A stretch of DNA of 64,000 nt from Kiritimatiellota bacterium. GTDB lineage: Bacteria > Verrucomicrobiota > Kiritimatiellia > JAAZAB01. Shown here in pieces: positions 13,858 through 35,523 of the stretch; position 1 is the first letter of the stretch, and every line of letters begins with the position of its first letter. A model generated the notes under the pieces. It was not told where the DNA came from and ran no database searches. It worked only from the letters and a program-made list of their open reading frames with translations. Location: contig JAPLSY010000030.1 in the NCBI GenBank assembly GCA_026398415.1, positions 21,306-85,305 on the forward strand. Direction: 5' to 3'. Made by a program: the position numbers and the translations under genes.

Positions 13858-14520
13858 TCAACTATCCTGCGCAACATCTTCCCGCGTCAGCCGGCGCGGC
13901 CCGCCACAGTGGGTCTTTGACCAATCCCGCGGCGCCGCCACGGCCGTCAACGCATCCAGCTTGCCGAGGGCTTTCAGCCGGTCATGAATCAATTGCCAGC
14001 CGCACTCGATATTATCGGGGTCCACCTCGCACCTGCCGTCTTCGGACCCGCCGCAAGGGCCGTTGGAAAGCGACTTGGCGCAGCGGGTCACCGGGCAAAC
14101 CCCGCCGAACACGCCGAGCTGACAATCGCCACAGGCCAGGCAGTTTTCCGCCCATTTGCCGGCGGCTTCGTTCGTGCCCATGAATTTTGTATTCAGCGCC
14201 GGATACACCGGCTTGTCGCCGAAAAGCCGCGCCGCCAGCTGGACCCCCACCCCACAGGCCAGCGAAAGAATGGCGTCACAGGCGGTCGCCACTTCGCGCA
14301 CGGACTCGAAAAACTCGGCATCGCACTGGCGCTCGATGGTCTGCTCCACCGCCTCAAGCTTTCCGCCCAGGCGCAAGACCGACGTCAGGGTGGCCACTTC
14401 ACGTTCGCCGCCGGCCAGGCAGACCGTGACACAAGTTCCACAGCCCAGCACCAGCACCTTCCGGTGGCCCTGGAGCAATCCCATGATTTCATCCATTGGT
14501 TTTTGTTCGGCAATAATCAT
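13858..14520 (-). CDS. metV: Methylenetetrahydrofolate reductase small Fe-S/Zn subunit
   Basis: GCGTCVTVC, ERQCD, ACGVG, CLACGDC, CPVTRCAKSLSNGPCGGS..GRCE, CGW. Confidence 0.92.
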   Translation of the reverse strand: MIIAEQKPMDEIMGLLQGHRKVLVLGCGTCVTVCLAGGEREVATLTSVLRLGGKLEAVEQTIERQCDAEFFESVREVATACDAILSLACGVGVQLAARLFGDKPVYPALNTKFMGTNEAAGKWAENCLACGDCQLGVFGGVCPVTRCAKSLSNGPCGGSEDGRCEVDPDNIECGWQLIHDRLKALGKLDALTAVAAPRDWSKTHCGGPRRLTREDVAQDS

Positions 14521-14526
14521 GACGCA

Positions 14527-16581: not shown

Positions 16582-16587
16582 GAAAAA

Positions 16588-17896: not shown

Positions 17897-18003
17897 AATG
17901 TGCCAGATTATTGGCCAGCCAATCTTGCATATTCCTGCAATTATTTAGTATATTACTGCATTACCTGGCCAATGAATGACGAGTTTTCAAAGAGAATCAG
18001 GTC
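17897..18003 (+). promoter_or_regulatory. Diverged inverted copy of the araC/metF2 intergenic region including a remnant of the araC 5' end; upstream of the hdr-met-mvh operon
   Basis: Aligns with the reverse complement of 19360-19457; remnant reads MNDEFSKRI from ATG 17972 versus MNEDFSKRI in the intact regulator; ATTCCTGC-N13-ATTACTGC repeat. Confidence 0.8.
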
Positions 18004-18065
18004 CAACGGGGCCATAGCCGCTGGCTATGCCTCCCACGTCACTACGCTTGCGTTCCGCCTTCCGA

Positions 18066-18103
18066 ACAACATTCTAACATTCTGCAGAATGTTGGAATGT
18101 TGT
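18066..18103. repeat. Palindrome P4 (38 bp, one mismatched pair)
   Basis: ACAACATTCTAACATTCTGCAGAATGTTGGAATGTTGT. Confidence 0.95.
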
Positions 18104-18149
18104 CGGCATTCGGATGCCATTGGTGAAAGAGAAATGCATAATCCCATTC

Positions 18150-19391
18150 TTAATGCTCATGATTCAACAGATAACGGAATTTGCCGGGGGTAAGGTTGAC
18201 GGCATCCTTGAAGGTACGGGTAAAGTGGCTTTGATCCGTGAAGCCGCAGCACAGGGCAATGTCGCTGACTTTCATAGTCGTGGTGGATAGCAGGCGCCGG
18301 GCTTCCGCGATGCGCTTTTCGTGAAGCAACTGGTGAAAAGTCTTGCCGGTTTCCCGGCGCAACGTATGCGCCAGGGAGGAAACACTGGCGCCCGTGGCGC
18401 GCGCGGCGGAGGCCAGGATTGCTTTGCCGGAGTAATGACACTGGATCCAGTTCAACGCCCGATCAGGAAGCGAGCCCTCCTTCTCGGAGTACTCTTCAGC
18501 GACCAGATGCTGCTGAATCATGTCCGCCACTTCACAGCAAGCGGCTTCGATGGTGTCGGCCTTTTCAAGGCGATGCATGGAACGCAGCTCACGGTTGACG
18601 GCGGTCTCCCACGGCATACCGCGGAGCACATCCTGGCTGGTTATCACGGCCAGCAGTATGCGCAAATGCGCTTTGAGCTTGGTCAGATCCCAGTTGCTGG
18701 CCATGAGCAGTTTGGCGAGAAAAATCGAGACTAACTGACGCGTGCGCTCCCGGTCCTGCCGGTTCAAATGCAAAACCATCCGGCATGTATCCACCATGAG
18801 ATCCGACGGCGGCTGGGCAGCGTTGCGCAAAACTTCCGCTTCCTCGGCAATTTCGCGCTGTTGCAGGTAACGGGCATTCTGCCGGGCAAAGAACGCAGAA
18901 GAATTCAAGCCCGACGAGAAGGTGGCATCCATGACATACTGGCCCAGGCCGCGCAGGGCGCTCGGCGTGATCGGCTTCAGCGAATCCAACGTCTTGCGCA
19001 GCGCCGGCACATCCCGCCGGGGCAACATGTTCAGACGTTCGCCAACTGTTTCGCGGATATCCGATTCCGGGGAATAGAATCCGCCCAGCGAAATTCCACC
19101 ACGCCCGATATTGCGCGGCGCCACCGCCACGGTGACAAAGAGCAATCCCGCCCAGCATTCCGAGTAAAACGGCTCGCCGGACGATAACGCGTTCAATGCC
19201 GCGTTACAGCAGGTATGGCGGCAAAATGAACGGGCGGACGGATGCTCCAGACATTGCCGGCAAAAGTCACAGAGCGCCCCATTGCGCAATGGACCTTGCT
19301 CGCTCAGATCATGATAGACCGCACCCTGCCGGCTCACCGATCCGATTTCGTTCAGTAACGACCCGATGCGCTTTGAAAAATCTTCATTCAT
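18150..19391 (-). CDS. AraC-family regulator with PocR sensor domain
   Basis: FC...C...GEP...CWAGL PocR pattern; C-terminal KVSDIALCCGFTDQSHFTRTFK...TPGKFR. Confidence 0.9.
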   Translation of the reverse strand: MNEDFSKRIGSLLNEIGSVSRQGAVYHDLSEQGPLRNGALCDFCRQCLEHPSARSFCRHTCCNAALNALSSGEPFYSECWAGLLFVTVAVAPRNIGRGGISLGGFYSPESDIRETVGERLNMLPRRDVPALRKTLDSLKPITPSALRGLGQYVMDATFSSGLNSSAFFARQNARYLQQREIAEEAEVLRNAAQPPSDLMVDTCRMVLHLNRQDRERTRQLVSIFLAKLLMASNWDLTKLKAHLRILLAVITSQDVLRGMPWETAVNRELRSMHRLEKADTIEAACCEVADMIQQHLVAEEYSEKEGSLPDRALNWIQCHYSGKAILASAARATGASVSSLAHTLRRETGKTFHQLLHEKRIAEARRLLSTTTMKVSDIALCCGFTDQSHFTRTFKDAVNLTPGKFRYLLNHEH

Positions 19392-19457
19392 CTGCGCAAG
19401 AATGTACCATATAATTGCAGGAATATACAAGATTGATCGCCGATAATCTGGCACATT
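19360..19457 (-). promoter_or_regulatory. Divergent promoter region between araC and metF-like gene
   Basis: 21-bp-spaced direct repeat (minus strand ATTCCTGC at 19424-19417, ATTCTTGC at 19403-19396); duplicated at 17897-18003. Confidence 0.7.
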
Positions 19458-19525
19458 GCGTCACTTGCCATCGCTCGCTTTTGCAGGCAGAATGGAGCAG
19501 GCAGCATTCAGGAATTGCCAGCACC

Positions 19526-20323
19526 ATGCAACATCATATCGACAATAAAATCTATCACATCGAGATCCTGACCCCGAAGCAAAACACCGAAAAGCTCGAC
19601 GAGGATCTGGCAAAGTTCGCGGAAAAGTACACCGCCGTGGTTGGGGCTGGCTATGCGGCGTGCATCACGGATAATCCCATGGGCCATCTCAGCTTCCAGG
19701 CCACGGACATCATTCCGGAATTAGCGCTTCCCGTAAAACCCGATCAACTCATGATCCATCTCAACACCTTTCACACCAAGGATGCGATGGATCAGATTCT
19801 GGATACGGCTTCCCGGATGGGCGTAAAGTACCTGCTGGTTGTCTCCGGCGATGGCAACGAGCGGCTACCCAGACTCAAGCCCGAGGCCATTGGCGCGAAG
19901 AGCCAGGTCGTCACCTCGGTTGAGTTGCTGCGCTACATTCACCAACGTCATCCAGGGACTTTCACCTGCGGCGTGGTCTTCAATCCCTACGAGCCGCAGG
20001 ATCATGAACTGGGAAAAATGCGCCGCAAGGTGGATGCCGGGGCAAAGTTTGTGTGCACCCAGCCGGTGATCGGCAAGGATGAGCGCGTGGACGCGCTCCG
20101 GCCCTTCGGTCTGCCCATCATCATTAATGCATGGATGTCCAAGAACATTCATCTGCTTTCCGAGTGCGTGGGCTACACCATCCCGGAGAATACGCCTTAC
20201 GATCCGATGGCGAACCTTCGTCAATTGCACAGGCACTACCCGGATTGCGGCCTGTACCTTGCGCTCTTGGGCTACAAGACGCAGTTCCCGCTGCTCAAGG
20301 AAGTATTAGGAAACACGCGCTGA
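19526..20323 (+). CDS. Second, short and divergent methylenetetrahydrofolate reductase-like flavoprotein
   Basis: ACITDNPMG, LLVVSGDG, RRKVDAGAKFVCTQPV; start uncertain. Confidence 0.75.
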   Translation: MQHHIDNKIYHIEILTPKQNTEKLDEDLAKFAEKYTAVVGAGYAACITDNPMGHLSFQATDIIPELALPVKPDQLMIHLNTFHTKDAMDQILDTASRMGVKYLLVVSGDGNERLPRLKPEAIGAKSQVVTSVELLRYIHQRHPGTFTCGVVFNPYEPQDHELGKMRRKVDAGAKFVCTQPVIGKDERVDALRPFGLPIIINAWMSKNIHLLSECVGYTIPENTPYDPMANLRQLHRHYPDCGLYLALLGYKTQFPLLKEVLGNTR

Positions 20324-20381
20324 GGAAGCTGACAAAAAAGGAGGCATCATTACCACACCTTGGAAGAGATGGCGGATCGCA

Positions 20382-21605
20382 TTGATGGGGGTGCTGTTGC
20401 AACTCTGCCTGGGCACGGTTTATGCCTGGAGCTATTTCCAGAAACCGCTGGTAGCCGTCTACGGGTGTTCAAACAGCCAGATCGCTTGGGGCTTTTCGCT
20501 GGCTATTTGTTTCCTGGGCCTGTCCGCCGCCTGGGGCGGCCTTAACCTGGAACGTTTCGGACCCCGACGATTGGCCATGACGGGTGGATTCCTTTACGCC
20601 CTCGGCTACCTGATCGCCGGCTGGGCCATTGCCTCAAAATCCCTGGTCTGGCTGTATCTGGGGTTTGGCGTGATCGGCGGGATCGGCCTCGGGTTGGGCT
20701 ACGTCACGCCCGTCGCCACGGTCGCTAAGTGGTTCCCGGACAAAAAGGGACTTGTCACCGGAATGGTGGTGATGGGGTTCGGTTTCGGCGCCCTGATCAT
20801 GGCCAAGATCATTGCCCCGCTCTTGATGACGGCGACCGGACAGAATCTGCCGCAAGTTTTCTTTTGGATTTGCGGCATAATGCTTGTCATGACATTGCCG
20901 GCGGCCGCTTGTTTGCAGAATGTCCCTGCGGCCCAGTCCGGCCGGCAATCCGGCGCAACACCGGTGGCATCCGCCAAAACAGCCTTGAAATCCAGCGCCT
21001 TTAGGCTGATGTGGCTTGTATTTTTCATCAACATCACAGCCGGAATAATGTTCATCGGCTTTCAATCGCCAATGTTGCAGGATCTCATGCATGCCAAAAA
21101 TACGGAATTGACGGCAGGAGTATTGAGCGCAGCCGGCGCCACGCTCATTGCCATCAGCTCATTGTTCAATGGTTTTGGGCGGCTGTTCTGGGGCGCGATT
21201 TCCGATAAGCTGGGACAAATCCGGGTGTTCCGGCTGATTCTGATCAGCCAGATATTCGTGTTTGCCGGGCTCATCGTCGTGCGGGAACCATGGCTGTTCG
21301 GCGTATTGGTCTGTTACGTACTGCTGTGCTATGGCGGCGGATTCGGCGTCATGCCGTCGTTTACCGGAGTCATGTTCGGGCAGTCGGTCATGCCCACAGT
21401 TTATGGCACGATTCTTACGGCCTGGTCGGCCGCGGGGATTGTGGGGCCCCAGCTGGCCGCTTTCATCAAGGACCATTACGCCGAACAGGCCGGACGGCTG
21501 ACGTTCAGCGTGGCGGTACTATTACTGTTGGTGGGCGCGGCCTTGTCGTTTCGGCTTCGCCCGCCTACACCCCCCGGCAAAGGGGACAGGCCGGATTGCG
21601 GTTGA
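20382..21605 (+). CDS. OFA family (oxalate/formate antiporter-like) MFS transporter
   Basis: QLCLGTVYAWS, KWFPDKKGLVTG..VMGFG, FNGFGRLFWGAISDK, YGGGFG; start may be further upstream (ATT at 20349). Confidence 0.9.
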   Translation: MMGVLLQLCLGTVYAWSYFQKPLVAVYGCSNSQIAWGFSLAICFLGLSAAWGGLNLERFGPRRLAMTGGFLYALGYLIAGWAIASKSLVWLYLGFGVIGGIGLGLGYVTPVATVAKWFPDKKGLVTGMVVMGFGFGALIMAKIIAPLLMTATGQNLPQVFFWICGIMLVMTLPAAACLQNVPAAQSGRQSGATPVASAKTALKSSAFRLMWLVFFINITAGIMFIGFQSPMLQDLMHAKNTELTAGVLSAAGATLIAISSLFNGFGRLFWGAISDKLGQIRVFRLILISQIFVFAGLIVVREPWLFGVLVCYVLLCYGGGFGVMPSFTGVMFGQSVMPTVYGTILTAWSAAGIVGPQLAAFIKDHYAEQAGRLTFSVAVLLLLVGAALSFRLRPPTPPGKGDRPDCG

Positions 21606-22317
21606 TGCGCACCGAGCGGAACTCCAGACGCAAGGCGTTATAGGTCAGCAGGCGGTTGGTCAAAAGCTCGCCGAGCCCGAGCAGATATTTGATGGCTTCC
21701 GTGGCCTGGATGGTTCCAATCACTCCCGGCACAACACCCAGCGGACCCTGCGGCGGTTCTTTGTTGCCCGGCGGCAGCTCGTCAAACACGCACCGCAGGC
21801 AGGCGGTTTTACCCGGAATTACGGTCAGCGTCTGGCCAATGAATTTAAGTATACCGGCATGCGAATATGGTTTGCCAATGGCGTGACAGGTCCCGGCAAT
21901 CATAAATTTGGATTCGAAATTATCGGTGGCATCAATGATAAAATCATATTCCTTAAACAACCCCGGCGCATTTCCAGCGGTCAGGCGCAGATTGTGGGCA
22001 TTGATCCGAACATCCGGATTGAGTGCCGCAAAGGCGCGCGCCGCCGATTCTATTTTGAATCGCCCCAGGTCGGCGGTGGTATGCGCAATCTGGCGCTGAA
22101 GATTGCTGAGTTCAAGGGTATCGCCATCCACAAGACCAAGCGTGCCGATTCCCGCCGCCGCCAGGTAATAACCGGCGGGCGAACCCAGGCCCCCCACCCC
22201 GATCAGCAGGACGCGGCTCGCCAGCAGCTTTTTTTGTCCCGCCGCGCCAATTTCCGGCAGGCTGATTTGCCGGGCATAGCGCTGGCGTTGCGCTTTACTC
22301 AATAGTTCCACACTCAT
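21565..22317 (-). CDS. thiF: ThiF/MoeB family adenylyltransferase
   Basis: RYARQISLPEIG..GQKKL, GVGGLG, DGDTLELSNLQRQ, CLRC, RNPACPLC. Confidence 0.88.
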   Translation of the reverse strand: MSVELLSKAQRQRYARQISLPEIGAAGQKKLLASRVLLIGVGGLGSPAGYYLAAAGIGTLGLVDGDTLELSNLQRQIAHTTADLGRFKIESAARAFAALNPDVRINAHNLRLTAGNAPGLFKEYDFIIDATDNFESKFMIAGTCHAIGKPYSHAGILKFIGQTLTVIPGKTACLRCVFDELPPGNKEPPQGPLGVVPGVIGTIQATEAIKYLLGLGELLTNRLLTYNALRLEFRSVRINRNPACPLCRGV

Positions 22318-22514
22318 CCTCCTCCCGCGAGACTGAGCAACTCGATCCGGTCTCCTTCGCGCAGGATGACGTCGCCGACCTTCTGCCGACTGATAACTTC
22401 GTCATTAACTACGGCAACCATTCGGGTCCCGGGGCTCCAGCGTTCGAGAAACGCCTGGAGCGTCAGGGGTTCTTCGTAACGGCACGTTTCGCCATTGACT
22501 GTTAATGTAATCAT
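22314..22514 (-). CDS. thiS: Sulfur carrier protein ThiS
   Basis: 66 aa, VNGE...VAVVNDEVI...GDRIE..., C-terminal GG. Confidence 0.88.
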   Translation of the reverse strand: MITLTVNGETCRYEEPLTLQAFLERWSPGTRMVAVVNDEVISRQKVGDVILREGDRIELLSLAGGG

Positions 22515-22517
22515 ATT

Positions 22518-25500
22518 TTATCTGCTTGCGTCGTTTAACCGTCGCGAGCGCCAGATGAAAAAGATCGCGGGATAAACCACCAGTTCCATGATCGTGGAGG
22601 TTATAACGCCGCCGATCATGGGCAAGGCAATGCGTTTCATAACATCGGCGCCGGCGCCGTGGCTCCACATGATAGGAAGCAAACCGGCAATAATGACTGA
22701 AGCCGTCATGGCCTTCGGACGCACGCGCTTGACTGCGCCGTGATAGATGGCATCGCGCAGGTCGGCGAGATTACGCATGAGACCTTTTCGCTGCCATTCA
22801 CCGTATGCCAGGTCGAGATAAAGGAGCATCACGACGCCCGTTTCGGCGTCGAGACCGGCCAGCGCGATGATGCCAATCCAGACGGCAACGCTCAGGTTAT
22901 AGTGGAACAAGGCGAGGGCCCCAAAGGCGCCCACGAGCGAAAAAGGCACCGCCAGCATGACAATAATCGTTTTGACTGCGGACCGCGTGTTCAGATAGAT
23001 GATCAGGATGATGATGAGCAGCGTCACGGGCACCACGATCATCAGCCGTTGTTTGGCCCGGAGCATGTATTCATACTGGCCGCTCCAGAAGATGTTGTAG
23101 CCGGAAGACAGTTTGATCGCACCCCTGGCAATGGCTGCGTTGACGGCGCGCTGCGCCATTTGCACATAGGTACCGACATCCATGCCTTTAACGTCCACGT
23201 AAATCCAGGCATTGGGCACGGCGGCCTCGCTCTTGATGCCCATCGGGGCATGCACCGTCTCAATGGTTGCCAATTGGCCAAGAGGAATTTGCGCCCCCAT
23301 GGGGGTAGGCACGACTATTTCGCGCAAAGCGCCGAGATTTTCCCGGAAATCGCGACTATAGCGAAGGTTGATGGCGTATCGCTCCAAACCTTCGACCGTG
23401 GTGGTCAGAGGCATGCCGCCCAAGGCCACTTCCAGGATATCCTGAACGTCGCCAACCTTAAGGCCGTAGCGGGCAATGGCGTCGCGGTCGATCGTGAACT
23501 GGATGTAGTTGCCGCCCATGGTGCGCTCGGCGAACGCGCTTAGCGTGCCGGGCACGGTTTTCACCACGGCCTCGATCTCGGAAGCGATGCGCTCCAGTTC
23601 GCCCAGATCCGCTCCCGCCACTTTGATACCAACCGGGGTCTTGATGCCGGTGGCGAGCATGTCAATGCGCGTCTTGATGGGCATCGTCCAGGCATTGTTG
23701 AGGCCGGGAAACTGGATCGCTGCATTCAGGGCGTCAACCAGTTCGTCCGGCGTGCGTCGGCGATGAGCAATGATCTTTCCCTCGGCATCCTTGATATCCA
23801 CGACCGGCCACGTCTTTTCGTCTTTAAGCATGATCGTGGTTTCGAGCATATCGAACGGCGCCGGGTCCGTGGCGGTCTCGGCGCGGCCAATTTTGCCGAA
23901 GACACGATGCACCTCCGGAAACGTCTTGATAATTTTGTCCGTCTGTTGAAGCAGCTCACGCGCTTTGGTGGGCGAAATACCCGGGAACGTGGTCGGCATG
24001 TACAGCAAATCGCCCTCATAAAGCGGGGGCATGAACTCCGAGCCGATGTTTTGATAGGGAAAGAACTTACCCGCTTTGAAGGCCAGTTCCTTGACGCGGC
24101 CGTCCGGCAGCCGTTGCGCCGCCAAGCGGTTCCAGGGAAGAAATACCCAGATGATGAGCGCGGCCGCGGTAACGATGACCGCCCAGCGCCATTTGATGAC
24201 AAAATCAATGACGGGATGATAGAGCCAGATGAGAAAGCGATTAATGGGGTTCTGCTCTTCGTGCGGGATCCTGCCCCGGATGAAGAAGCCCATCAGGATC
24301 GGCGCCAGCGTGATGGAGAGTATGGCGGCCGCGGCCATCGAATAGGTCTTGGTGAAGGCCAAGGGCTTGAACAGCCGCCCCTCCTGGGCCTGGAGCGTGA
24401 ACACGGGCAGGAACGAGACCGTGATGACCAGCAGGGAGTAGAACAAGGTGGGCCCCACTTCGACGGCCGCGTCACGGATGATCGCCCAGTGGGGTTTTGC
24501 GCCCTGGTCGCGCTCCATGTGCTTGTGGGCGTTTTCGATCATGATGATGGCCGCATCCACCATCGCGCCGATGGCAATGGCGATCCCGCCGAGCGACATG
24601 ATGTTGGAACTGATGCCCTGGCCAAACATGATCAGGAACGAAATCAGCACGGCCATCGGCAGAATGGCGATAGCGACCAGTGCGCTGCGCAAGTGCATCA
24701 GGAATACGATGCACACCAGCGCCACGACGATGCTTTCCTCGATCAGTTTCTCTGCCAGCGTCTTGACGGCGCGATCAATCAGCGCGCTGCGGTCATAAGC
24801 GACGGTATAGCGCACGTCCGGCGGCAGCCCTTGCATGGCCTGGTCGAGCTTCTTCTTCACATCAAGAATGACCTGGCGGGCATTGGCGCCGTAGCGGACC
24901 ACGACGATGCCGCCCACGGTTTCACCCTCGCCGTTCAACTCGGCAATGCCGCGCCGCATGTCCGGGCCGAACTCCACGTTGGCAACCTGCCCAAGGAGAA
25001 TCGGCACGCCCTGGCCATCCACGCCGAGCGCGACTTTACGCAAGTCATCTAATTGCTGCACGTAACCGCGCACACGGAGGATGAATTCCTTCTCCGCCAA
25101 CTCGATGGAACGACCGCCTACCTCCCCATTGCTGCGCCGGATGGCCATGGCCACATCCGAGATCGAAAGGTTGTAGGCGCGCAGTTTGGTCGGATCCACG
25201 GTCACTTGGTATTGCTTGACAAAGCCGCCGAGGGAGGCGACCTCGGACACGCCCTCCACGGCGGAAAGTTGGTATTTTAAATACCAGTCCTGCATGGAGC
25301 GCAGTTCGGCAAGGCTACGGTTGGTAGAGTTGATGGCGTACATAAACGCCCACCCGACGCCCGTGGCATCCGGGCCGAGACTGGGCGTTACGCCGGCTGG
25401 GAGCCGGCCGCTCAAGCCGCTCAGGTACTCGAGCACCCGGCTGCGCGCCCAATACGGATCGGTTCCGTCCGCGAAGATCACATATACAAAGGAAAAACCG

Positions 25501-25763
25501 TAGAACGAGTAGCCGCGCACCACCTTCGCTTTGGGCACCGAGAGCATCTTGGTCGTGATCGGGTAAGTGACCTGGTCCTGGATGATCTGCGGCGCCTGAC
25601 CCGACCACTCGGTATAGATAATGACCTGCACATCCGACAGATCGGGAATCGCGTCGAGCGGAATGTTGCACACCGCGTAAACACCGCCTAACGCCAGTGC
25701 GATCGTTCCCAGCAAGACGATGAATTTGTTCTTGAGCGAAAAATCGATGATTCCTTGGAGCAT
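22518..25763 (-). CDS. cusA: CusA/CzcA family heavy-metal RND efflux permease
   Basis: LDAIPDLSDVQVII, GYSFYGFSFVYVIF, GAMVDAAIIMIEN, RVRPKAMT; start trimmed to MLQGIID. Confidence 0.93.
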   Translation of the reverse strand: MLQGIIDFSLKNKFIVLLGTIALALGGVYAVCNIPLDAIPDLSDVQVIIYTEWSGQAPQIIQDQVTYPITTKMLSVPKAKVVRGYSFYGFSFVYVIFADGTDPYWARSRVLEYLSGLSGRLPAGVTPSLGPDATGVGWAFMYAINSTNRSLAELRSMQDWYLKYQLSAVEGVSEVASLGGFVKQYQVTVDPTKLRAYNLSISDVAMAIRRSNGEVGGRSIELAEKEFILRVRGYVQQLDDLRKVALGVDGQGVPILLGQVANVEFGPDMRRGIAELNGEGETVGGIVVVRYGANARQVILDVKKKLDQAMQGLPPDVRYTVAYDRSALIDRAVKTLAEKLIEESIVVALVCIVFLMHLRSALVAIAILPMAVLISFLIMFGQGISSNIMSLGGIAIAIGAMVDAAIIMIENAHKHMERDQGAKPHWAIIRDAAVEVGPTLFYSLLVITVSFLPVFTLQAQEGRLFKPLAFTKTYSMAAAAILSITLAPILMGFFIRGRIPHEEQNPINRFLIWLYHPVIDFVIKWRWAVIVTAAALIIWVFLPWNRLAAQRLPDGRVKELAFKAGKFFPYQNIGSEFMPPLYEGDLLYMPTTFPGISPTKARELLQQTDKIIKTFPEVHRVFGKIGRAETATDPAPFDMLETTIMLKDEKTWPVVDIKDAEGKIIAHRRRTPDELVDALNAAIQFPGLNNAWTMPIKTRIDMLATGIKTPVGIKVAGADLGELERIASEIEAVVKTVPGTLSAFAERTMGGNYIQFTIDRDAIARYGLKVGDVQDILEVALGGMPLTTTVEGLERYAINLRYSRDFRENLGALREIVVPTPMGAQIPLGQLATIETVHAPMGIKSEAAVPNAWIYVDVKGMDVGTYVQMAQRAVNAAIARGAIKLSSGYNIFWSGQYEYMLRAKQRLMIVVPVTLLIIILIIYLNTRSAVKTIIVMLAVPFSLVGAFGALALFHYNLSVAVWIGIIALAGLDAETGVVMLLYLDLAYGEWQRKGLMRNLADLRDAIYHGAVKRVRPKAMTASVIIAGLLPIMWSHGAGADVMKRIALPMIGGVITSTIMELVVYPAIFFIWRSRRLNDASR

Positions 25764-25795
25764 AAAACCGTTTCCTGTTCGACTTAGTGCTGATG

Positions 25796-27550
25796 TTACG
25801 GCGCAACCGGTCCCGGAGCGATGGCCGGATGCTGTTGCCGCCATTCAGCCGGCGTCGGCTTCGGAGCTTCCATCACCGGGATGAGGGTCATGCCGCATGC
25901 CGGACACTTGCCCGGTTTGTCCAAGTGGACATCGCTGTGTTCAGGCATGGGACAGGCATAATAAAGCAGCTTGCCGCCCGGTGGCAGCTTGCTTAACGTC
26001 GCCGGTGAAATCGGCACCAGCGTCATCCCGCAAATAGGACATTGGCCCGGATGATCGTATTCGATCGAGACATGTTCGGGCATTGGACAGAGGTAAACCA
26101 GCTTTTCCGGTTTCGCCGGCATCGCCATGGCGGTTTGGGCGGGAGCTGTCTCGCGAACCGCTGCCGGGGCGGTGGCGGCCGGCTGGCCGGGCTTGATCAT
26201 TTTCTGGATGGCCTCGCGCAGTTGACTTTCTGAATCAAGCATGAACTGGCCTGAGGTGACAATTTTTTCGCCTTCATTCAGCCCGCTGAGGACCTGGTAA
26301 TAATCGTTCTCCGCCTGCGGACCGAGCGTGACGGTGCGCGGGTCGAAACGTCCGCCTGCCAGGGCCACAAAAACAGTGTTCTTTTCGCCGCTGCGGAGGA
26401 TGGCCGAGTCGGGCACCAGCAGGACCGAGGGCTCCAATTCAGAGGTGACGGTGACCGAGGCAAACATACCCGGTTTGAGGAAAAATCCCGGGTTATGGAA
26501 CTCCATGCGCACGCGGGCAGTGCGGGTCTTTTCATCCACATTCGGATAGATGTAGGTCACGCGGCCGCGGAACTGGCGACCCGGCAGGTAAGAGAGTGCC
26601 ATGGCCGCTTCCTGGCCCAGTTTGAGATAGACGATATCCTGTTCGTAAATCTGCGCATAGACCCAGACCAGCGCCAGGTCGGCCAAACGATAGATTTTCA
26701 TGCCGGGATCCACCATCTGGCCCTCAACCACATTTTTTTCGACGACAAAACCATCAATGGGCGAAAGGATGCGCAGGGTTTTCCTGGGCTGGAGCGTTTT
26801 CTCCAGTTCGGCAATCTGTTCGTCCGAGATATCGAAGTATTTCAACTTGGTGAAGGCACTGGTTCTCAGCACATCTTTCTTCAGCACGGCGTTGACGGGA
26901 GAAGCAAGTGCCGTCAGATATTCGGCTTGTGCGCTGTAAAGTTCCGGCGAGTAGATTTCGAAGAGCGGTTCGCCGCGGTGCACCTGCTGGCCGGTGGCGT
27001 CCACATATAACTTTTCAATCCAACCTTTGAACTTGGTGGTCACGTCAGCCAAGGACGGCTCGTTATAATCGATCGTCGCCACGCTGCGTATCGTCCGACG
27101 CAACGGGCCGCGGATAACCTCGGCGGTGCGGATACCCATATTCTGGATTGTCACCGGGTCAATCGTAATGGTGGACGATTCGGCTGTGGCCGCCTCGTCT
27201 GCATACACCGGCAGCATGTCCATGCCCATGCTGTCCTTACCCGGCGTCTGGCGCACTTCGCACGGGAGCATAGTGGATTTGTAGTACTTGACCTCTCGCT
27301 CAGTGGAACCGGCGCCGACGCCGACCTGCTTGCGAATCCTGGTCAGTTTCATCCCGCAGATGGGGCAGTTGCCCGGTTTGTTTTGAATCACCTGGGGGTG
27401 CATGCCGCACGTGTAGAGCTGTTCGGATTTTGCTTCGCGTGCGCTCCTGTGGTCCGGAACGGATGGTTTCAGGAAGAGTACCCCGGCGGCGACAATAAGC
27501 GCCGCCACAACCACCGTAAAAGTTAGCGTGAGTTTTATTTTTGTTTTCAT
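25796..27550 (-). CDS. cusB: CusB family RND periplasmic adaptor with four heavy-metal-binding modules
   Basis: YTCGMHP..PGNCPICGMKL, PGKDSMGMD, YSPELYSAQAEY, two C-terminal CPMPEH...PG.CP.CGM modules. Confidence 0.9.
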   Translation of the reverse strand: MKTKIKLTLTFTVVVAALIVAAGVLFLKPSVPDHRSAREAKSEQLYTCGMHPQVIQNKPGNCPICGMKLTRIRKQVGVGAGSTEREVKYYKSTMLPCEVRQTPGKDSMGMDMLPVYADEAATAESSTITIDPVTIQNMGIRTAEVIRGPLRRTIRSVATIDYNEPSLADVTTKFKGWIEKLYVDATGQQVHRGEPLFEIYSPELYSAQAEYLTALASPVNAVLKKDVLRTSAFTKLKYFDISDEQIAELEKTLQPRKTLRILSPIDGFVVEKNVVEGQMVDPGMKIYRLADLALVWVYAQIYEQDIVYLKLGQEAAMALSYLPGRQFRGRVTYIYPNVDEKTRTARVRMEFHNPGFFLKPGMFASVTVTSELEPSVLLVPDSAILRSGEKNTVFVALAGGRFDPRTVTLGPQAENDYYQVLSGLNEGEKIVTSGQFMLDSESQLREAIQKMIKPGQPAATAPAAVRETAPAQTAMAMPAKPEKLVYLCPMPEHVSIEYDHPGQCPICGMTLVPISPATLSKLPPGGKLLYYACPMPEHSDVHLDKPGKCPACGMTLIPVMEAPKPTPAEWRQQHPAIAPGPVAP

Positions 27551-27557
27551 AAAGCGA

Positions 27558-29012
27558 TCAGGGCTTTGGGTTTTGCGTGGCGGCGGACGAAGGGACCAGG
27601 AGCGGCGCATTTACCGGCGGCGTTCCCAGGATAATAAGACTGAGTTCGGCAAGGACGAGTTCGCGTTGGGTGTGCGCTTCAATCTCGGCCAGTTGAAAAT
27701 TAAGCAGGGTTCGCTCGGCATCAATCAGGTTGAAAAAATCAATCCGGCCAGCCAGGTAGCCGGAGCGGGCAACTTCCAGCGACTGCCGCGCTTTGGGGAT
27801 CAGTTGTTCCTGCAACAGGGCCAGATTGCGGCTGATCTCGCGGAAGGCAAACGTTTGTTCGGCGAAATCCATGGCCAATGTAATCTGTTCTCCGGTGAGC
27901 CGGGCTTGGGCCGCGCGTTTGTCGGACTGCGCGGCAGCAATTTCAGCGGCGATTTTGTCGCGCCAAACGGGCAGGGTCATGCCGAACAAAGGGCGGAACA
28001 TCGTGGGCGCGGCTTTGACGTCGGCCATGAGGCCCAAGCCAAAATCCGGCACGCGCGTCTTATAGGCCAGGTCCAGCGCTGCTTCGGCACGCCGCACATC
28101 GGCCTCCATTGCTTTGAGACGAGGGTTCCGGACAAAGGCTTCCGCCAACAACCGGTCGGAAGTCAAGTCAAGCGGTGTGGATTCAAAGCGCGCCGGCACC
28201 GGCGGATTGGATTGTTCCGCCGTCAAGCCCAAGGCTGCCTTCAGCCGGGCCAGGAGCGGCTCTCTCGAGTCTTCCAGATTAGCAATGTCGGTCGCGAGCC
28301 GATCCTCTTCAATCTGGGCGCGCAACACGTCTTGCAACGTCACCCGGCCCACGTCATTCTGTGCACGGGCAATTTGTTCCAATTCCATCAGCAGGTTCAA
28401 CATCTGGCGGTTGATGCGGATGCGCTCATCCAGGAAATACGATTGATAATAGGCCCGTTTGAAGGCAAAGGCGGTCTGCAGGACGACGGATTCAAAGGTG
28501 AAGTATTTCGTCTGGCTCTCCGCCGAAGCCGCCTGGGCGCGCAAGCCAAGCTTGCCGGGACCCGGAAATTCCTGCATCAGCCCCGGCATGACGGTCATCA
28601 CCACGTCGGCAATATCGCTCTGGAACGTCAACTGGGGATCGGGCAGGGAACGTTCGACCGTAATGCGCTCGACCGATGCGACCCAATCATAATACGCCGA
28701 CTCTACTTGCGGGTGGTTCAACATGGCGAACCGCAAGAAGTCGTTCAGCGGCGAGTTGGTCGAGAGCGTCGGCATCGCCGGCCGCTGACCGTTGGGCCGG
28801 TAAATTGTTTCGATCGCTTGTTGATTCCGATGCGCCGCTTTCTCCCCGGGCGACTGAACACCCACACAACCGACCAGCAGGAAAACCATAGCAAAACCGC
28901 CGAGAACCAAGCATAGCCAGGACCCGCCGCGCATCGCATCCACGCTGAGGACGGCATCCATTCCCCGGCATGGGTCCCACGGTCTTTTTCCAATCCCTTT
29001 CTTCGTTTTCAT
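27558..29012 (-). CDS. TolC family outer-membrane efflux lipoprotein (CusC-like)
   Basis: Lipobox LLVGC, SLPDP, GYLAGRIDFFNLIDAER; start uncertain. Confidence 0.85.
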   Translation of the reverse strand: MKTKKGIGKRPWDPCRGMDAVLSVDAMRGGSWLCLVLGGFAMVFLLVGCVGVQSPGEKAAHRNQQAIETIYRPNGQRPAMPTLSTNSPLNDFLRFAMLNHPQVESAYYDWVASVERITVERSLPDPQLTFQSDIADVVMTVMPGLMQEFPGPGKLGLRAQAASAESQTKYFTFESVVLQTAFAFKRAYYQSYFLDERIRINRQMLNLLMELEQIARAQNDVGRVTLQDVLRAQIEEDRLATDIANLEDSREPLLARLKAALGLTAEQSNPPVPARFESTPLDLTSDRLLAEAFVRNPRLKAMEADVRRAEAALDLAYKTRVPDFGLGLMADVKAAPTMFRPLFGMTLPVWRDKIAAEIAAAQSDKRAAQARLTGEQITLAMDFAEQTFAFREISRNLALLQEQLIPKARQSLEVARSGYLAGRIDFFNLIDAERTLLNFQLAEIEAHTQRELVLAELSLIILGTPPVNAPLLVPSSAATQNPKP

Positions 29013-29436
29013 CGTTGCACCAGTCGGCCGTTTCGGCTTGGATTTCCAAATGATCGATTTCAATCCTGATTCGTGTTGACAAGATAAACTGACTATGGTC
29101 CGGGCAATGCCACATGCCATAGGCTTATTCGAGCATATCACCTTTCCTGTTTTCGTCAATTACCGGGCGCACTTCAAAAAAACTTTGTTCAATATGCAAA
29201 CTGTTTTGCTTGACTGTTAATCGCCTGCTTTTGTCAGATGCTCCAGCGAGCCAATTCTTTATCCTTCAGACTTGACCTCCCGGCCACCCTTTAACATATT
29301 ACCGCCATTAATAGTTTCATCAGGTCGGTTCCGAGTGGCGAGTATTGGATTACTGCGGCTGAAGCCGAACCTGCAAAGTGGTTCTCCGGGAAGATTCAGG
29401 AGTGGCTGGCAAAGATCGGCACAAAGGCGAGCAAAC

Positions 29437-30369
29437 ATGAAACAAACATGGATTGACACGCACATACACGTGTCTGATGTCGGGCCGGACGGAACGCGCC
29501 GCGAGAGGATGCTCGAGAACCTGCTGAACGTGCTCGACCGCTGTGACGCGGATCTGCGCTTTGTGATCAGTTGCGATAGTCCGTACACATGGCATATGAT
29601 TCAAGATCCGGTTGGGATGATGGAGGGGAACCGTTTCATTTACGAACTGGTCCGCCGCGCGCCCGGGCGGCTTTACGGAAGCTGCACGATCAACCCCAAC
29701 TTACTCGAGGAGTCGCTACGGGTGATGGACGTCTGCTTCAGTGAATGGGGATTCGTGCAGTTGGGCGAGATGCTGCAGTACATGATGAACTACCGCATGG
29801 ACAGCGATGCCGGAGAGGCGGTCGTGCGGCACGCCGTCAAGTACAACGTCCCGGTGCAAGTCCACCTGGGAACCTACTGCCGGCCCAAACACCAGGGCGG
29901 CCGGTATCGGGATGAGACCTCTGGCGACGGCATTTTCCATATCGCGGACCTTCTGGGAGTCGCGCAGCGTGTGCCGGAGGCCAAGTACGTCCTCGCCCAC
30001 GCCATCGGATGCGGACCCACTCCAGATTACATCTCTTGGGCCGATATGTTCCTGGACGTCATCCAGGGGTCGTATGACACGTATCCCGACAATTTCTGGA
30101 TCGAGATCAGGGACTTTCAGTGCAAAGCGTTACCGCGAACGATCCGCGACGTACCGACCAACCGCCTGCTCGCCGGAACAGACTGGGTGACACGGGTTGG
30201 TCCACCGTTCCAGCCATACGGAACCATGTTTGATGTGAAGGCGGGCCAGAATCCCTTCCCGCCAAAGGTGTCGTCCTTCGTGGAATTCCTCCGTGCCGCC
30301 GGGGCAACGGAGAACGATATTCAGCGCATCGGAGCCGAGAACGCCAGGGAACTTTTCCGCCTTCCGTGA
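29437..30369 (+). CDS. Amidohydrolase family metal-dependent hydrolase
   Basis: IDTHIH, QVHLG, LAHAIG, LAGTDW, GAENARELF. Confidence 0.85.
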   Translation: MKQTWIDTHIHVSDVGPDGTRRERMLENLLNVLDRCDADLRFVISCDSPYTWHMIQDPVGMMEGNRFIYELVRRAPGRLYGSCTINPNLLEESLRVMDVCFSEWGFVQLGEMLQYMMNYRMDSDAGEAVVRHAVKYNVPVQVHLGTYCRPKHQGGRYRDETSGDGIFHIADLLGVAQRVPEAKYVLAHAIGCGPTPDYISWADMFLDVIQGSYDTYPDNFWIEIRDFQCKALPRTIRDVPTNRLLAGTDWVTRVGPPFQPYGTMFDVKAGQNPFPPKVSSFVEFLRAAGATENDIQRIGAENARELFRLP

Positions 30370-30531
30370 AAAGTCTCCTGCTTGTCATCCGGTACTCGTG
30401 CGTGGCATATCCTGGAGAACGGTCGCCAGATTGTGCCGCCCTCCCGGGTTGCACAAAAGCCAACATAATTGAGGGACGGAATTCTTCCCTGGTTCTCTCG
30501 CCTGGGCGAAGCGCTTCGGCGGAGCCTGGTC

Positions 30532-30566
30532 GTTCTTTGTTCTTTGTTCCGCACGCTTCACGTGCT
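30532..30566 (+). repeat. Short heptamer array at thiG 3' end
   Basis: GTTCTTT GTTCTTT GTTCCGC ACGCTTC ACGTGCT. Confidence 0.5.
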
Positions 30567-31343
30567 TCCGGCATTCGAAAGGAACGAGGTCAGCGGACTG
30601 GTGGGGACGGCCTCCTCGCTCTGGGACATGATCCCGGCCAGACGCGCGGAATGACCGGCCTGCACGGCTAAAGCAAAGGCGGCGGCCATAGCCACGGGAT
30701 CGCCGGCGATGGCAATGGCGCTATTGACCAGCACGGCATCGCACCCGATTTCCATGGCCAGGGCGGCATCGGCAGGCGAACGCAATCCCGCATCCACAAT
30801 CACCGGCACGCGACTGTCGCGGATAATGATTTTAAGCAGGTCGGCCGTGGCCAGGCCGTGGCCCGTGCCGATCCCCGACCCCAAGGGCATGACCGACGCA
30901 CAGCCGACATCTTCCAGACGCTTGGCCAGGACCGGATCGGCCGGCATGTAGGGCATGACCACAAAACCTTCCGCCGCCAGGATCCTGGTGGCCTCCAGGG
31001 TTTCAATCGCATCCGGCATCAGGTGATGGGGATTGGGATGGATTTCCACCTTGATAAACTTGCTGCCGCTGAGTTCCCGGGCGATGCGGGCGGCCTTGAC
31101 GGCCTCCTGCGCGTTGCAGGCCCCGGACGTGTTCGGCATGAGCGTCAGGCCCTTGATGGTCAACAACGGGCCCAGCAGATCATCCGAGGGCCGTTCCCGA
31201 TTGAACCGGCGCAAAGCCACGGTCACAAGCTGGGCGCCGGAAGCCTGAATGGCTTTCAGCATGGTTTCGGCATCCGAAAACTTACCCGTCCCCAGGATCA
31301 GGCGCGAGGTGAAGGTGTGTTGGCCTAATGTTAAAGAATCCAT
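30558..31343 (-). CDS. thiG: Thiazole synthase
   Basis: [49 protein letters not shown]. Confidence 0.95.
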
Positions 31344-31353
31344 GGCAAAACCA

Positions 31354-31479
31354 GTGATCAGTGATTAGTAATCAGTTATCAGTTCTTCGTTCTTGGTTCT
31401 TCGTTTTTGGTTCTTCGTTTTTTGTTCTTCGTTTTGCATTCGACGTTAAGCGTTTGACGTTGGGCATTGAGCGTTTGCT
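31354..31479 (+). repeat. Composite array of 18 in-phase heptamers from three motif families
   Basis: 4x GT(G/A/T)AT(C/T)A, 8x GTT(C/T)TT(C/G/T)-like, 6x (G/A)TTnnnC-like, all in one 7-nt register. Confidence 0.85.
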
Positions 31480-31514
31480 TCTTCCCTTTTCAGACTGTCG
31501 TCCGTTGTCTGGCC

Positions 31515-31895
31515 TCACGTCTTCATCAATTTCCGGCGCTGGACGGCAACGATTTCATTGATCCGTTTGGGATTCGGCAAGCCGCGGGCAACCAGTTCAT
31601 AGCCTTCCACACCCGAGGTGGCCATCTTGATATCGCCAATCCGGCACAGCCGCTGGAAAAACGACTGGCTAATTTCAACCGTGTTGATGTCCGTTATCGC
31701 CAGATCTACAACGCGCTTGCTGACGAGCCCGGTTTCCAGAACTACCCGGTCCGGATATACACGCAAAGTCAGACTGGCCTGCTTCCAGAGCGCGATCACC
31801 AGCGGGATCAACAGCCACCCGAACACCAGGTACCCGAAGTAATGCCACCAGGATGGCTCCACTTCCAGCAGGAGGTCTTCCGTATCTTCAAACAC
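31515..31895 (-). CDS. Bacterial PH-domain membrane protein
   Basis: One hydrophobic segment then YPDRVVLETGLVSK...I.TVEISQSFFQRL..IGDI. Confidence 0.75.
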   Translation of the reverse strand: MFEDTEDLLLEVEPSWWHYFGYLVFGWLLIPLVIALWKQASLTLRVYPDRVVLETGLVSKRVVDLAITDINTVEISQSFFQRLCRIGDIKMATSGVEGYELVARGLPNPKRINEIVAVQRRKLMKT

Positions 31896-31985
31896 CTCTT
31901 CATCCTCCGGATCTTATGTCCGCATGGGGCATGGTTCACGGTTCCAAGGTTATCGGATCATATGACAAGGGCGATCTTGACGGAT

Positions 31986-32034
31986 TTGTCCGGCGTCTGT
32001 CGTCTGTCATCCGTCGTCGGGCTTCCGTCCCCCG
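31986..32034 (+). repeat. Heptamer array, TCGTCCG family (7 units) immediately after methyltransferase stop
   Basis: TTGTCCG GCGTCTG TCGTCTG TCATCCG TCGTCGG GCTTCCG TCCCCCG. Confidence 0.7.
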
Positions 32035-32036
32035 CC

Positions 32037-33050
32037 CTACCCAAGCTTGCCTGCGCGATGAGCGGCAATAAAATTCATGCCAAAATCGTCCGTGCCCAGC
32101 AGGAGCGCCTTGGCCAGCTGGAACGGCTCCGCGTTTGCGTCCAGACCCTGAAGGATTTTGGCATTGATCTGGAGCGGGTCCACAATACCGCCATCGCCGC
32201 CGGCTTCCACCGCCAGATAAGCGAAGACCTGGTTGATCAGCTTGCGGGCGGGCATGCCAAAGGACACATTGCTCAAGCCGCCGATAATGTGAACGGCGGG
32301 ACCGTACTTTGCCCGGATCGCTTGCACGGCGGCCAAAAACATCTTGCCGTTGTTCGCTTCCGTGGAAATTGTATAAACAAGCGGGTCCACGTGAATCCAA
32401 TCCATCTGGATGCCCTTGGCCGTCAACTGCGGGATCAGCCGTCCCAAATTATCCAGGCGTTCCTCCGTGTTAGCAGGCAGGCCTTTTTCACCGGCGGCGG
32501 AGGCCACCACGGCCGGTTTATACTCGGCCACCGCGCCCAGGAGCCCGATGCGCTCCAGGGAAATGGAGTTCACCATCGGCCGACCGCGGGCTTTTTCGCA
32601 GGCTTTCAGGCCGGCGCGCATGATATCGCTGTTGGAGGAATCGATGCTGAGCGGCAGGCGGGAGGCGCCCTGGACCAGCGCCGCCGTCCACTGCACAGCC
32701 TTGATCCGTTCCGGCAAATCCATGCTGAATTCATCCACGTTTACATCGAGGAACGAAGCCCCGGCCTTCTCCTGCTTGGCCGCCATGACCCGCAGGTAAT
32801 CGCAACCGGCTTCCTGCGCGGGTCCCTGTCCGTAAAGCCCCTGCCAGATCGCCGCAACGCAGTGCTTGATTTTTCCGTTTTCCCAGTCGGCGCTTTTCAA
32901 TAAAATTTCGGGAATGGGCAATGTTTTCTTCTTGCCGCCATCGTCATAGCGAATGACGCGCGCAGCGGCATCCACCAGGTTGCCATCGCGCTTCAGCACG
33001 CGCGTGCAATGAATGTTCTCACCGATCACAATAAAGGTTTTGATCTGCAT
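32037..33050 (-). CDS. Methyltetrahydrofolate:corrinoid methyltransferase (pterin-binding TIM barrel, AcsE/MT2 type)
   Basis: VIGENIH, LDVN, PLSIDS, MVNSI, VDPLV, GGLSNVSFGMP, IVDP. Confidence 0.88.
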   Translation of the reverse strand: MQIKTFIVIGENIHCTRVLKRDGNLVDAAARVIRYDDGGKKKTLPIPEILLKSADWENGKIKHCVAAIWQGLYGQGPAQEAGCDYLRVMAAKQEKAGASFLDVNVDEFSMDLPERIKAVQWTAALVQGASRLPLSIDSSNSDIMRAGLKACEKARGRPMVNSISLERIGLLGAVAEYKPAVVASAAGEKGLPANTEERLDNLGRLIPQLTAKGIQMDWIHVDPLVYTISTEANNGKMFLAAVQAIRAKYGPAVHIIGGLSNVSFGMPARKLINQVFAYLAVEAGGDGGIVDPLQINAKILQGLDANAEPFQLAKALLLGTDDFGMNFIAAHRAGKLG

Positions 33051-33153
33051 AATTCAGCCTTTCCATTGTATGGTTCCAACTCTCTTCACAACGACGCCGA
33101 TTAATATACGCCAACCGCCCGACCCGACAAGCAAAATTGGCGCACCACGACGG

Positions 33154-33191
33154 AAAAAAACCGCCCCGCTGGAGTTACCCAGCAGGGCGGC
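33154..33191 (-). terminator. Rho-independent terminator after corrinoid protein gene
   Basis: Minus strand CCGCCCTGCTGG-GTAACT-CCAGCGGGGCGG-TTTTTTT. Confidence 0.8.
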
Positions 33192-33219
33192 TTTAAATAT
33201 ACAGGACAATAGACCGAGT

Positions 33220-33858
33220 TTACTTGACGCCCGACAGCTTTTTCGCCAAATCGGCGGCCGAAGCGGCATCCGGCGCGTAACCATCGGCGCCGATCTCATC
33301 GGCAAACGCCTGGGTCACGGGCGCGCCGCCGATCATGACCTTGACTTTGCCGCTCATACCCGCCGCCTTGACGGCTTCCACGACGCTCTTCATATTGGTC
33401 ATGGTGGTCGTCAGCAGGGCGGAGGCCCCGATCAGGTTGGCGTTATTTTCCTTGGCCAACTGGACCATTTTATCGGGCTCCACGTTGATGCCCGCATCCA
33501 CGATCTTGAAACCAGCCCCTTCCAGCATCATGCACACCAGGTTTTTGCCAATGTCATGCAGATCGCCCTTGACGGTTCCCACAACGACCGTGCCCTTCGG
33601 CTGAACACCGGCGGCGGCCAGGAGCGGCTTCAACTGTTCCATACCCGCTTTCATAGCGCGGGCGGCAATCAGCACTTCCGGCACATAGACTTCGTTCTTC
33701 TTGAACCGCTCGCCGATAATGCTCATGCCGGACAGCAAGCCCTTATTCAGAATGTCGGCCGGTTTGATCTTTTCCGCGACGGCCTTCGCGACTAGTTCCT
33801 TAACGTCCTTGGCCTTACCCTTGATCAAGTTCTCCGTGATTTGCTCCAATACGCTCAT
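33220..33858 (-). CDS. Corrinoid (cobalamin-binding) protein, MtbC/MttC/MtvC type
   Basis: N-terminal cap (GLLSGM..IGERF..NEVYVPE), GDLHDIGKNLV (DxHxxG), SALLTTT, GGAP; RBS AGGAGG. Confidence 0.93.
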   Translation of the reverse strand: MSVLEQITENLIKGKAKDVKELVAKAVAEKIKPADILNKGLLSGMSIIGERFKKNEVYVPEVLIAARAMKAGMEQLKPLLAAAGVQPKGTVVVGTVKGDLHDIGKNLVCMMLEGAGFKIVDAGINVEPDKMVQLAKENNANLIGASALLTTTMTNMKSVVEAVKAAGMSGKVKVMIGGAPVTQAFADEIGADGYAPDAASAADLAKKLSGVK

Positions 33859-34010
33859 GTAACCCTCCTGTTTGCCCGCCTGCATCCGGCAGTTGCCGGA
33901 AGCATTGCGGGCAGTTTATTACCCGGCTTGTTTACGACGTTGATCCCTTTGCCCAATTCGATCTAAAAACACAGCCTTACCATACGGGAACCCCGGTTAA
34001 AAGATAGACA

Positions 34011-34039
34011 AATAATGCTTGATTTTATAACATTCTTGC
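34011..34039 (+). promoter_or_regulatory. Third instance of the 21-bp-spaced AnTnnTGC direct repeat, between corrinoid gene and second PocR-AraC
   Basis: AATAATGC (34011-34018) and ATTCTTGC (34032-34039). Confidence 0.45.
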
Positions 34040-34069
34040 TGTATTTAAAAAAATAGTGCCGAATATTGA

Positions 34070-35395: not shown

Positions 35396-35523
35396 TCCGG
35401 TTTTGGCATCCTCCCCCATGCAAGCGCTCTTTCAGGCTGGTTTTAATGGGTGCGTATCCGTACCGCCCGAAAAGCGCTTTCTTATCACCCGGACAAACAG
35501 TGCAAATTAATAAAAAAGAAAAT

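Follow-up and report, generated by a model that had tools for sequence, protein, structure and literature searches.

Whether one operator serves three methyl-group modules, or whether two related regulators each keep an operator of their own, is the question raised by a 64,000-nucleotide stretch of a Kiritimatiellota genome (GenBank assembly GCA_026398415.1, contig JAPLSY010000030.1, forward-strand positions 21,306 to 85,305), which is called the window here and whose numbering is used throughout. The window encodes two transcriptional regulators that combine a PocR sensor with an AraC-type DNA-binding domain, Reg1 (413 amino acids; 18150-19391, minus strand; Pfam HTH_18, HTH_AraC and PocR) and Reg2 (431 amino acids; 34100-35395, plus strand), which are 28% identical and are the only two PocR-AraC genes in the genome. 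A preliminary description of this DNA had noticed pairs of octamers with a 21-bp period before the hdr-metVF-mvh operon, the metF2-MFS (major facilitator superfamily) pair and a corrinoid-protein module, and had proposed that both regulators act through this motif in a single methyl-group regulon. From the anatomy of the sequences, their conservation and their co-occurrence with the regulator genes, all observed directly, we infer that the first two sites are likely to be two copies of a Reg1 operator, ancestral at the reg1/metF2 locus, and the third a separate element of Reg2. Reg1 probably co-controls hdr-metVF-mvh and metF2-MFS, and Reg2 probably controls the corrinoid module separately.

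All six octamers were found again on the expected strands: ATTCCTGC at 17931 and ATTACTGC at 17952 on the plus strand (site 1), ATTCCTGC at 19424 and ATTCTTGC at 19403 on the minus strand (site 2), and AATAATGC at 34011 and ATTCTTGC at 34032 on the plus strand (site 3). The members of each pair are 21 bp apart and read away from the target genes. The 3.29-Mb genome has only two matches to the strict pattern ATTMYTGC-N13-ATTMYTGC; its 432 single octamers among 6.6 million positions give an expectation of about 0.03 chance pairs. The idea of one motif at three promoters survives for sites 1 and 2, which are probably copies of one conserved operator, and is unsupported for site 3, which lies in a different conserved element.

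Sites 1 and 2 represent one evolutionary event and are not independent of each other, because a 107-bp inverted duplication spans both of them together with the 5′-end of reg1: positions 17897-18003 of the plus strand align with positions 19457-19360 of the minus strand. The duplicated segment holds a conserved block on the target side (AATGTGCCAGATTAT), two units 21 bp apart and the first 11 codons of reg1. The repeat unit is longer than the octamer, measuring 15 nt with the consensus TTGyATATTCnTGCA; at both sites the two units match at 11-12 of 15 positions, and the repeats read toward a reg1 start codon. At site 1, the target-proximal block (17897-17914; CCAATAATCTGGCACATT on the minus strand), a putative -10/start region, is followed by unit 1 on the side of the hdr promoter (17925-17939, plus strand; TTGCATATTCCTGCA), by unit 2, 21 bp further on (17946-17960, plus strand; TAGTATATTACTGCA), and by an 11-codon reg1 stub reading MNDEFSKRIRS (17972-18003, plus strand), after which the sequence is unrelated. 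At site 2, unit 2 (19395-19409, minus strand; TGGTACATTCTTGCG) includes TGGTACATT, which resembles an extended -10, and terminates 4 nt ahead of the Reg1 ATG at 19391, the likely start codon, from which the N-termini of the orthologues align. Unit 1, nearer the metF2 promoter (19416-19430, minus strand; TTGTATATTCCTGCA), is -35-like for Reg1, and the target-proximal block of this site (19440-19457; CCGATAATCTGGCACATT on the plus strand) is likewise a putative -10/start region. Throughout the genus, this block recurs in the control regions of both hdr and metF2 without exception.

Past its 11 reg1-like codons, the stub runs on as an open frame of about 73 codons (17972-18193) and enters the 3′-end of Reg1 on the opposite strand; it is probably not a gene, and a leaderless transcript from the site 1 promoter would run antisense to Reg1. 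Between the stub and the 3′-end of Reg1 lies a 45-nt near-perfect palindrome (18062-18106; CCGAACAACATTCTAACATTCTGCAGAATGTTGGAATGTTGTCGG), which may be a bidirectional terminator.

Comparison with relatives, the close ones being Kiritimatiellaeota or Kiritimatiellae metagenome-assembled genomes (MAGs), ties the operator to the adjacent regulator, and supports the earlier proposal that an AraC-type direct-repeat operator with a 21-bp period precedes both hdr-metVF-mvh and metF2-MFS. Four more genomes of the genus encode Reg1 orthologues with 77-93% identity, and more distant relatives at about 40-44% occur in other genera. In every member of the Reg1 family that was examined (five from the genus at 77-100% amino acid identity and six distant ones at about 40-44%), the repeat pair immediately precedes the start codon, and the 21-bp period is kept in all 13 of the 13 sites compared. 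Within the genus, the consensus before the Reg1 start is TTGCATATTCnTGCAAT.AT.TGGTATATTCnTGC. Distant lineages hold the layout while both units change together, for example to ATATTCTGAyA twice or ATAAyCAGG twice; units 1 and 2 read TTGAATATTCTGACA and TTGTATATTCTGATA in L061, ATAATCAGGCA and ATAACCAGGTA in G010, and GTATATTC at both positions in G021.

The presence of the element also follows that of the regulator. In two genomes (G009 and G005), the hdr operon lies on a different contig from Reg1 and has no neighbouring regulator gene; the pair GCAAGAATataccacttaattGCAGGAAT and the same target-proximal block nevertheless stand in front of it. Unit 1 of site 1 is thereby conserved before hdr in both, the two units are identical between them, and the similarity of their upstream regions ends exactly at the outer edge of unit 2. 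Two further genomes (G002 and G008) possess the hdr operon and lack Reg1, and there the repeat element is absent too. G006 has kept metF2-MFS with reg1 cut to a stub, and its operator has decayed, the TGCA boxes having become CGCG and CGCA. A 29-nt pattern allowing at most three mismatches was found in five of the five genomes with a close Reg1 and in none of the 28 other genomes of the family, in two copies exactly where the hdr operon is present and in one copy otherwise; the reversed control gave none.

Position weight matrices (PWMs) built from the relatives only single out the same two places in this genome. Sites 1 and 2 scored 60.6 and 53.2 bits with a 44-mer matrix, under which no other position in the genome reached 12 bits, 45.8 and 45.1 bits with a 32-mer matrix (next best, 14.8), and 34.2 and 30.7 with a matrix for the single unit (next best, 20.9). 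The genome-wide scan therefore added no site before folD, fhs or any other gene, and the further members that had been suggested for the regulon (folD, fhs and the corrinoid activator) have no motif above background in the 3.29-Mb genome under the Reg1-type or the Reg2-type model. No third copy of the Reg1-type pattern was seen in the relatives examined.

Some look-alikes of these sites were considered and set aside. Three places in the genome (window 60202-60229, C12:27468 and C21:107908) carry a near-identical 28-mer, TTCTTGCCGCATAAACGGAAATTACTGC, that matches a relaxed form of the pattern; these matches were not taken as regulatory, as the three look like paralogues and the one at window position 60202 is part of a coding sequence whose repeats are rich in aspartate and glycine. 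In the spacer between a TIM-barrel-like gene and a regulator gene at C35:42181-42212, TAATATTCTGCCA and TAATATTCTTGCA stand 20 bp apart; this place (ATATTC-TGCC and ATATTCTTGCA) is probably not a Reg1 site, as the period is not 21 bp and the variable base is missing from one unit. A sigma-54 reading of CTGGCAC was also rejected, since the GG-N10-GC spacing is not found.

Site 3 differs from sites 1 and 2 in what is conserved around it. It is enclosed by an element of the Reg2 type (34003-34042, plus strand; GATAGACAAATAATGCTTGATTTTATAACATTCTTGCTGT), and nearly all Reg2 orthologues are preceded by TATAGACAAA-N-GCT-N-TTTTATAACAnTCTTGCTGT. The second octamer of site 3 falls in the best-conserved block of this element, and its ATTCTTGC is the sole likeness to sites 1 and 2, with which there is no extended homology. 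The first octamer, AATAATGC, falls in the least conserved part; apart from the GC of its closing TGC, which most orthologues retain, it is variable, and orthologues differ by 1 nt in how far the two blocks stand apart. An 18-mer, TTATAACANTCTTGCTGT, was found with at most two mismatches beside Reg2 in 23 of 33 genomes of the family, and a few genomes have additional two-mismatch matches to it, at about the frequency of the reversed control. When a 20-nt block was modelled from 27 relatives (18-mer core TTATAACATTCTTGCTGT), site 3 scored 37.6 bits, the next position 18.9 bits, and sites 1 and 2 about -3 bits. Conversely, site 3 fell below background with the Reg1-type models: it scored -3.5 bits with the 32-mer matrix and was not among the 96 places reaching at least 8 bits with an 11-mer unit matrix. 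A sigma-70 scanner proposed TAGACA-17-TAACAT (plus strand) and TTTAAA-16-TAAAAT (minus strand) at site 3, calls that are not decisive, and an Rfam scan of 8000-42000 at E ≤ 0.1 revealed no riboswitch in the three spacers, its only match being a sub-threshold one to isrK inside a coding region.

These results bear on the proposal that Reg1 and Reg2 share one motif at all three promoters and together induce methyl capture and methyl-THF (tetrahydrofolate) oxidation. In its favour, (A)TTCTTGC-like octamers stand 21 bp apart in the same orientation at all three sites, the second recognition helices of the two regulators are related (DQSHFTRTFK and DQSYFIKHFK), and there is a functional link between the modules, methyl-THF being the product of one and the substrate oxidised by the other. 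Moreover, under a matrix built only from the octamers of sites 1 and 2, site 3 comes 21st among 6.6 million positions and is found in the spacer of the sole paralogue; for this 214-bp spacer, the rank corresponds to about p = 1.4e-3. The shared TTCTTGC core is therefore probably not pure chance, and it probably reflects the common descent of two paralogous regulator-operator pairs. Against a single regulon, the two types of model reject each other's sites, and site 3 has a first octamer that lacks conservation and stands at no fixed distance from the second block. The regulators are also distributed differently among the 61 relatives (Reg2 in 34, Reg1 in 10), and hdr operons in genomes with Reg2 only have neither motif; the sensor domains differ, too, as described below. 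Inclusion of the corrinoid module in one regulon with the other two is thus unsupported, and we regard the shared-motif explanation as improbable.

At the reg1 side, the repeats coincide with -35 and extended -10 sequences, so that the operator overlaps the putative promoter of Reg1 itself. Unit 1 starts with TTGyAT, a weak -35, and unit 2 with TGnTATATT, an extended -10, and the spacer between them is 18 bp. The distance from the -10 hexamer to the ATG or GTG is exactly 7 nt in five distant lineages and 9 nt in the genus, and no Shine-Dalgarno sequence was found before the Reg1 start in the lineages compared; the reg1 mRNA is probably leaderless or nearly so. A consensus sigma-70 scanner did not call this promoter, because its -35 fits at only three of six positions. 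On the target side, unit 1 is followed after about 10 nt by a conserved TAATCTGGCAC block. If its TAAT box were the -10 of the target promoter, unit 1 would occupy about -38 to -24, a position compatible with class II-like activation and also with repression.

This overlap gives rise to another explanation, in which the conserved 45 bp are nothing but the strong extended -10 promoter of a leaderless reg1, the repeats are incidental, and the copies before hdr are non-regulatory relics of a lost reg1 paralogue. It draws on the 18-bp spacer and the 7 nt to the start codon, and on the reg1 stub that still stands at the hdr site of this genome; two of the difficulties gathered in the next paragraph also speak for it. 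A promoter alone is insufficient, however, because the units are alike outside the hexamers, the element is kept at hdr sites that have no gene on that side, and the element has decayed where Reg1 was lost. A canonical -35 hexamer does not resemble a canonical -10 hexamer, whereas units 1 and 2 agree at 11-13 of 15 positions, and their agreement extends to the TTCnTGCA part, which lies outside the hexamers. The hdr copies of G009 and G005, with no gene on that side, are identical across both units and unrelated past unit 2; the decayed operator of G006 accompanies a retained metF2; and hdr operons of genomes without Reg1 lack the element. We therefore hold this explanation, too, to be unlikely. 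The least probable alternative, a chance similarity or a mobile repeat element with no regulatory role, can appeal to other repeat families in the window, palindromes included (e.g., 18062-18106), and can hardly be reconciled with a copy number of just two in the genome, with orthologous positions that stay fixed in other species and with a presence that strictly tracks Reg1.

Several points nevertheless weigh against two Reg1 operators and a separate Reg2 element. First, the likeness of site 3 at the octamer level leaves some room for cross-recognition. Second, the most deeply conserved bases of the Reg1 operator, TTG and TGnTATAnT, are also those that a promoter alone would keep. Third, a covariation test of the two units across six lineages is suggestive and not significant (within a site, 5.3 of 8 matches; between lineages, 4.0 of 8; p = 0.07 from 52 of 720 permutations). 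Fourth, the co-occurrence counts are small, coming from 10 genomes of the genus, several of which are incomplete MAGs, and the 29-nt search pattern was derived from the sites that it recovered, so that its independent information consists of the absences and the copy numbers only. Finally, unit 1 would lie nearer the transcription start than classical class II sites of the AraC family, and repression instead of activation is therefore possible.

The reading with two Reg1 operators and a separate Reg2 element would imply the following scheme, in which binding, the direction of regulation, transcription starts and ligands are predictions. The ancestral operator would lie between Reg1 and the divergent metF2-MFS pair and coincide with Reg1's own promoter. 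Bound there, Reg1 would cover its own core promoter, which would result in autoregulation, and would also contact the -35 region of the divergent target promoter represented by the TAATCTGGCAC block. A copy of this control region would then have been placed before hdr-metVF-mvh, with the 11-codon stub of reg1 retained in this genome, bringing an Hdr-linked methylene-THF reductase under Reg1. Site 3 would be a different operator/promoter element, TAGACAAA-N14/15-TATAACAnTCTTGCTGT, belonging to Reg2, which may locally govern the divergent genes for the corrinoid protein and methyltransferase as well as its own operon.

The two regulator proteins differ as well. Both have HTH_18 together with a PocR domain that is barely above the PF10114 threshold (25.6 and 24.8 bits vs. 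a cut-off of 23.9). The recognition helices, SVSSLAHTLRRET and DQSHFTRTFK in Reg1 and SVFRVSHLVKQNT and DQSYFIKHFK in Reg2, are related and differ at base-contacting positions, as judged by alignment to MarA. The PocR domain of the Reg1 family carries a four-cysteine motif, FCRxC-x9-CR-x21-CW (residues about 41-80; C44, C47, C57 and C79 of Reg1), which family members keep at identities as low as about 40% and which Reg2 lacks, so that different signals for Reg1 and Reg2 are plausible. This motif may be a metal or Fe-S site, and Reg1 may sense redox state or a cofactor instead of an alcohol.

The genes around the sites fit the modules named above by their Pfam matches. The first target operon (9171-17862, minus strand, extending further leftwards) encodes an FAD/Fe-S oxidoreductase (16588-17862), an HdrA/MvhD fusion (14527-16581), MetV (13858-14520), MetF (12878-13861) and a large HdrA-like protein (9171-12281). 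The second (19526-21605, plus strand), divergent from Reg1 in a pairing conserved in at least seven genomes, consists of a short MTHFR-like MetF2 (19526-20323) and an MFS transporter (20382-21605). Divergent from Reg2 on the minus strand are the genes for the corrinoid protein (33220-33885) and a pterin-binding methyltransferase (32037-33050), a pairing kept in more than 25 genomes, with Reg2 orthologues divergent from the corrinoid protein gene in nearly all cases, and a URO-D-like gene (35245-36480, plus strand) follows Reg2.

Some relatives depart from this arrangement. The spacer between metF2 and Reg1 is about 430 bp in one locus (L004, G003:C38) as opposed to about 135 bp, with a GC-rich palindromic insert between the operator and metF2. 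The metF2 genes of G005 (L077) and G007 (L076) have one in-frame stop each (TAA and TAG) and may be pseudogenes or assembly errors. In two distant loci the Reg1-like regulator does not adjoin MetF2: in L009 (G056:C266) its neighbour is a pterin-binding methyltransferase, and in L061 (CAIJXV010000032.1) it is a homocysteine-S-methyltransferase-like gene, identified as such by inspection of its N-terminus, and a pterin-binding methyltransferase lies farther upstream. From these methyltransferase neighbours, the regulator family seems to be linked to methyl-folate metabolism generally.

The predicted operator has counterparts among known AraC-family systems. The half-site of XylS at the Pm promoter of the Pseudomonas putida TOL plasmid is TGCA-N6-GGNTA, in a 15+6 layout. 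XylS at Pm and AraC at araI1-araI2 of Escherichia coli resemble the present case in that a regulator with a double helix-turn-helix faces two direct-repeat units with a 21-bp period; read on the target strand, the unit found here is TGCA-N6-TAyxA, which resembles the XylS half-site. In XylS and AraC the operator is next to the -35 of the target; here such a position is putative, and it may be about 10 bp closer to the -10 than at Pm or pBAD. In contrast to these systems, Reg1 has a PocR domain as its sensor, and its predicted operator, in a divergent spacer, overlaps the probably leaderless promoter of reg1 itself. In leaderless regulator genes such as lambda cI and many actinobacterial ones, as in the distant lineages here, the extended -10 ends 7 nt before the ATG or GTG and a Shine-Dalgarno sequence is missing. 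Unlike in them, the spacing in the genus is 9 nt, so that a leader of 0-2 nt is possible.

Among PocR-type regulators, MtaR of Eubacterium limosum is a PocR-AraC protein that activates the corrinoid methyltransferase operon mta in response to methanol, a precedent for the control proposed here; its gene comes first in the operon of this Firmicute, and the site that it binds has only been predicted (in 2026), as an inverted repeat (PMC13602510). For Salmonella PocR (pdu/cob), two PocR boxes at Pcob are mentioned, as cited in the same article (PMC13602510). MtaR and PocR share with Reg1 and Reg2 the domain layout of a PocR sensor and an AraC DNA-binding domain; their local control of genes for corrinoid-dependent methyl transfer or linked to B12, and their upstream activating region next to the -35, would have counterparts here. 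Unlike MtaR, the regulators of the present genome, from Kiritimatiellia, are divergent from their targets and their predicted sites are direct repeats; the predicted targets of Reg1, furthermore, are the Hdr-MetVF-Mvh operon and the MetF2-MFS pair and not methyltransferases.

The operator predicted here, TTGyATATTCnTGCA twice at a distance of 21 bp, is a precise one for a PocR-AraC regulator, a class with poorly defined binding sites; as a local gene switch, it is of an ordinary type that can here be followed in uncommon detail. Two modular regulons would replace the picture of one regulon. An unusual, HdrB-less Hdr-MetVF-hydrogenase operon and a stand-alone MetF2-transporter pair of uncultured Kiritimatiellia would be linked to one sensor, which helps in guessing when these enzymes are used. 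More speculatively, and as a reading that we hold to be rather unlikely, the regulon may have grown by copying a whole cassette (the leaderless reg1 promoter, the two-unit operator, the divergent target promoter and the stub) before the Hdr-MetVF-[NiFe] hydrogenase operon, and what the four-cysteine sensor of Reg1 reads may be a metal or the redox state and not an alcohol. In that case, methyl-THF oxidation in Kiritimatiellia would be switched by Reg1 in response to redox conditions or a cofactor, separately from Reg2, which would sense a substrate.

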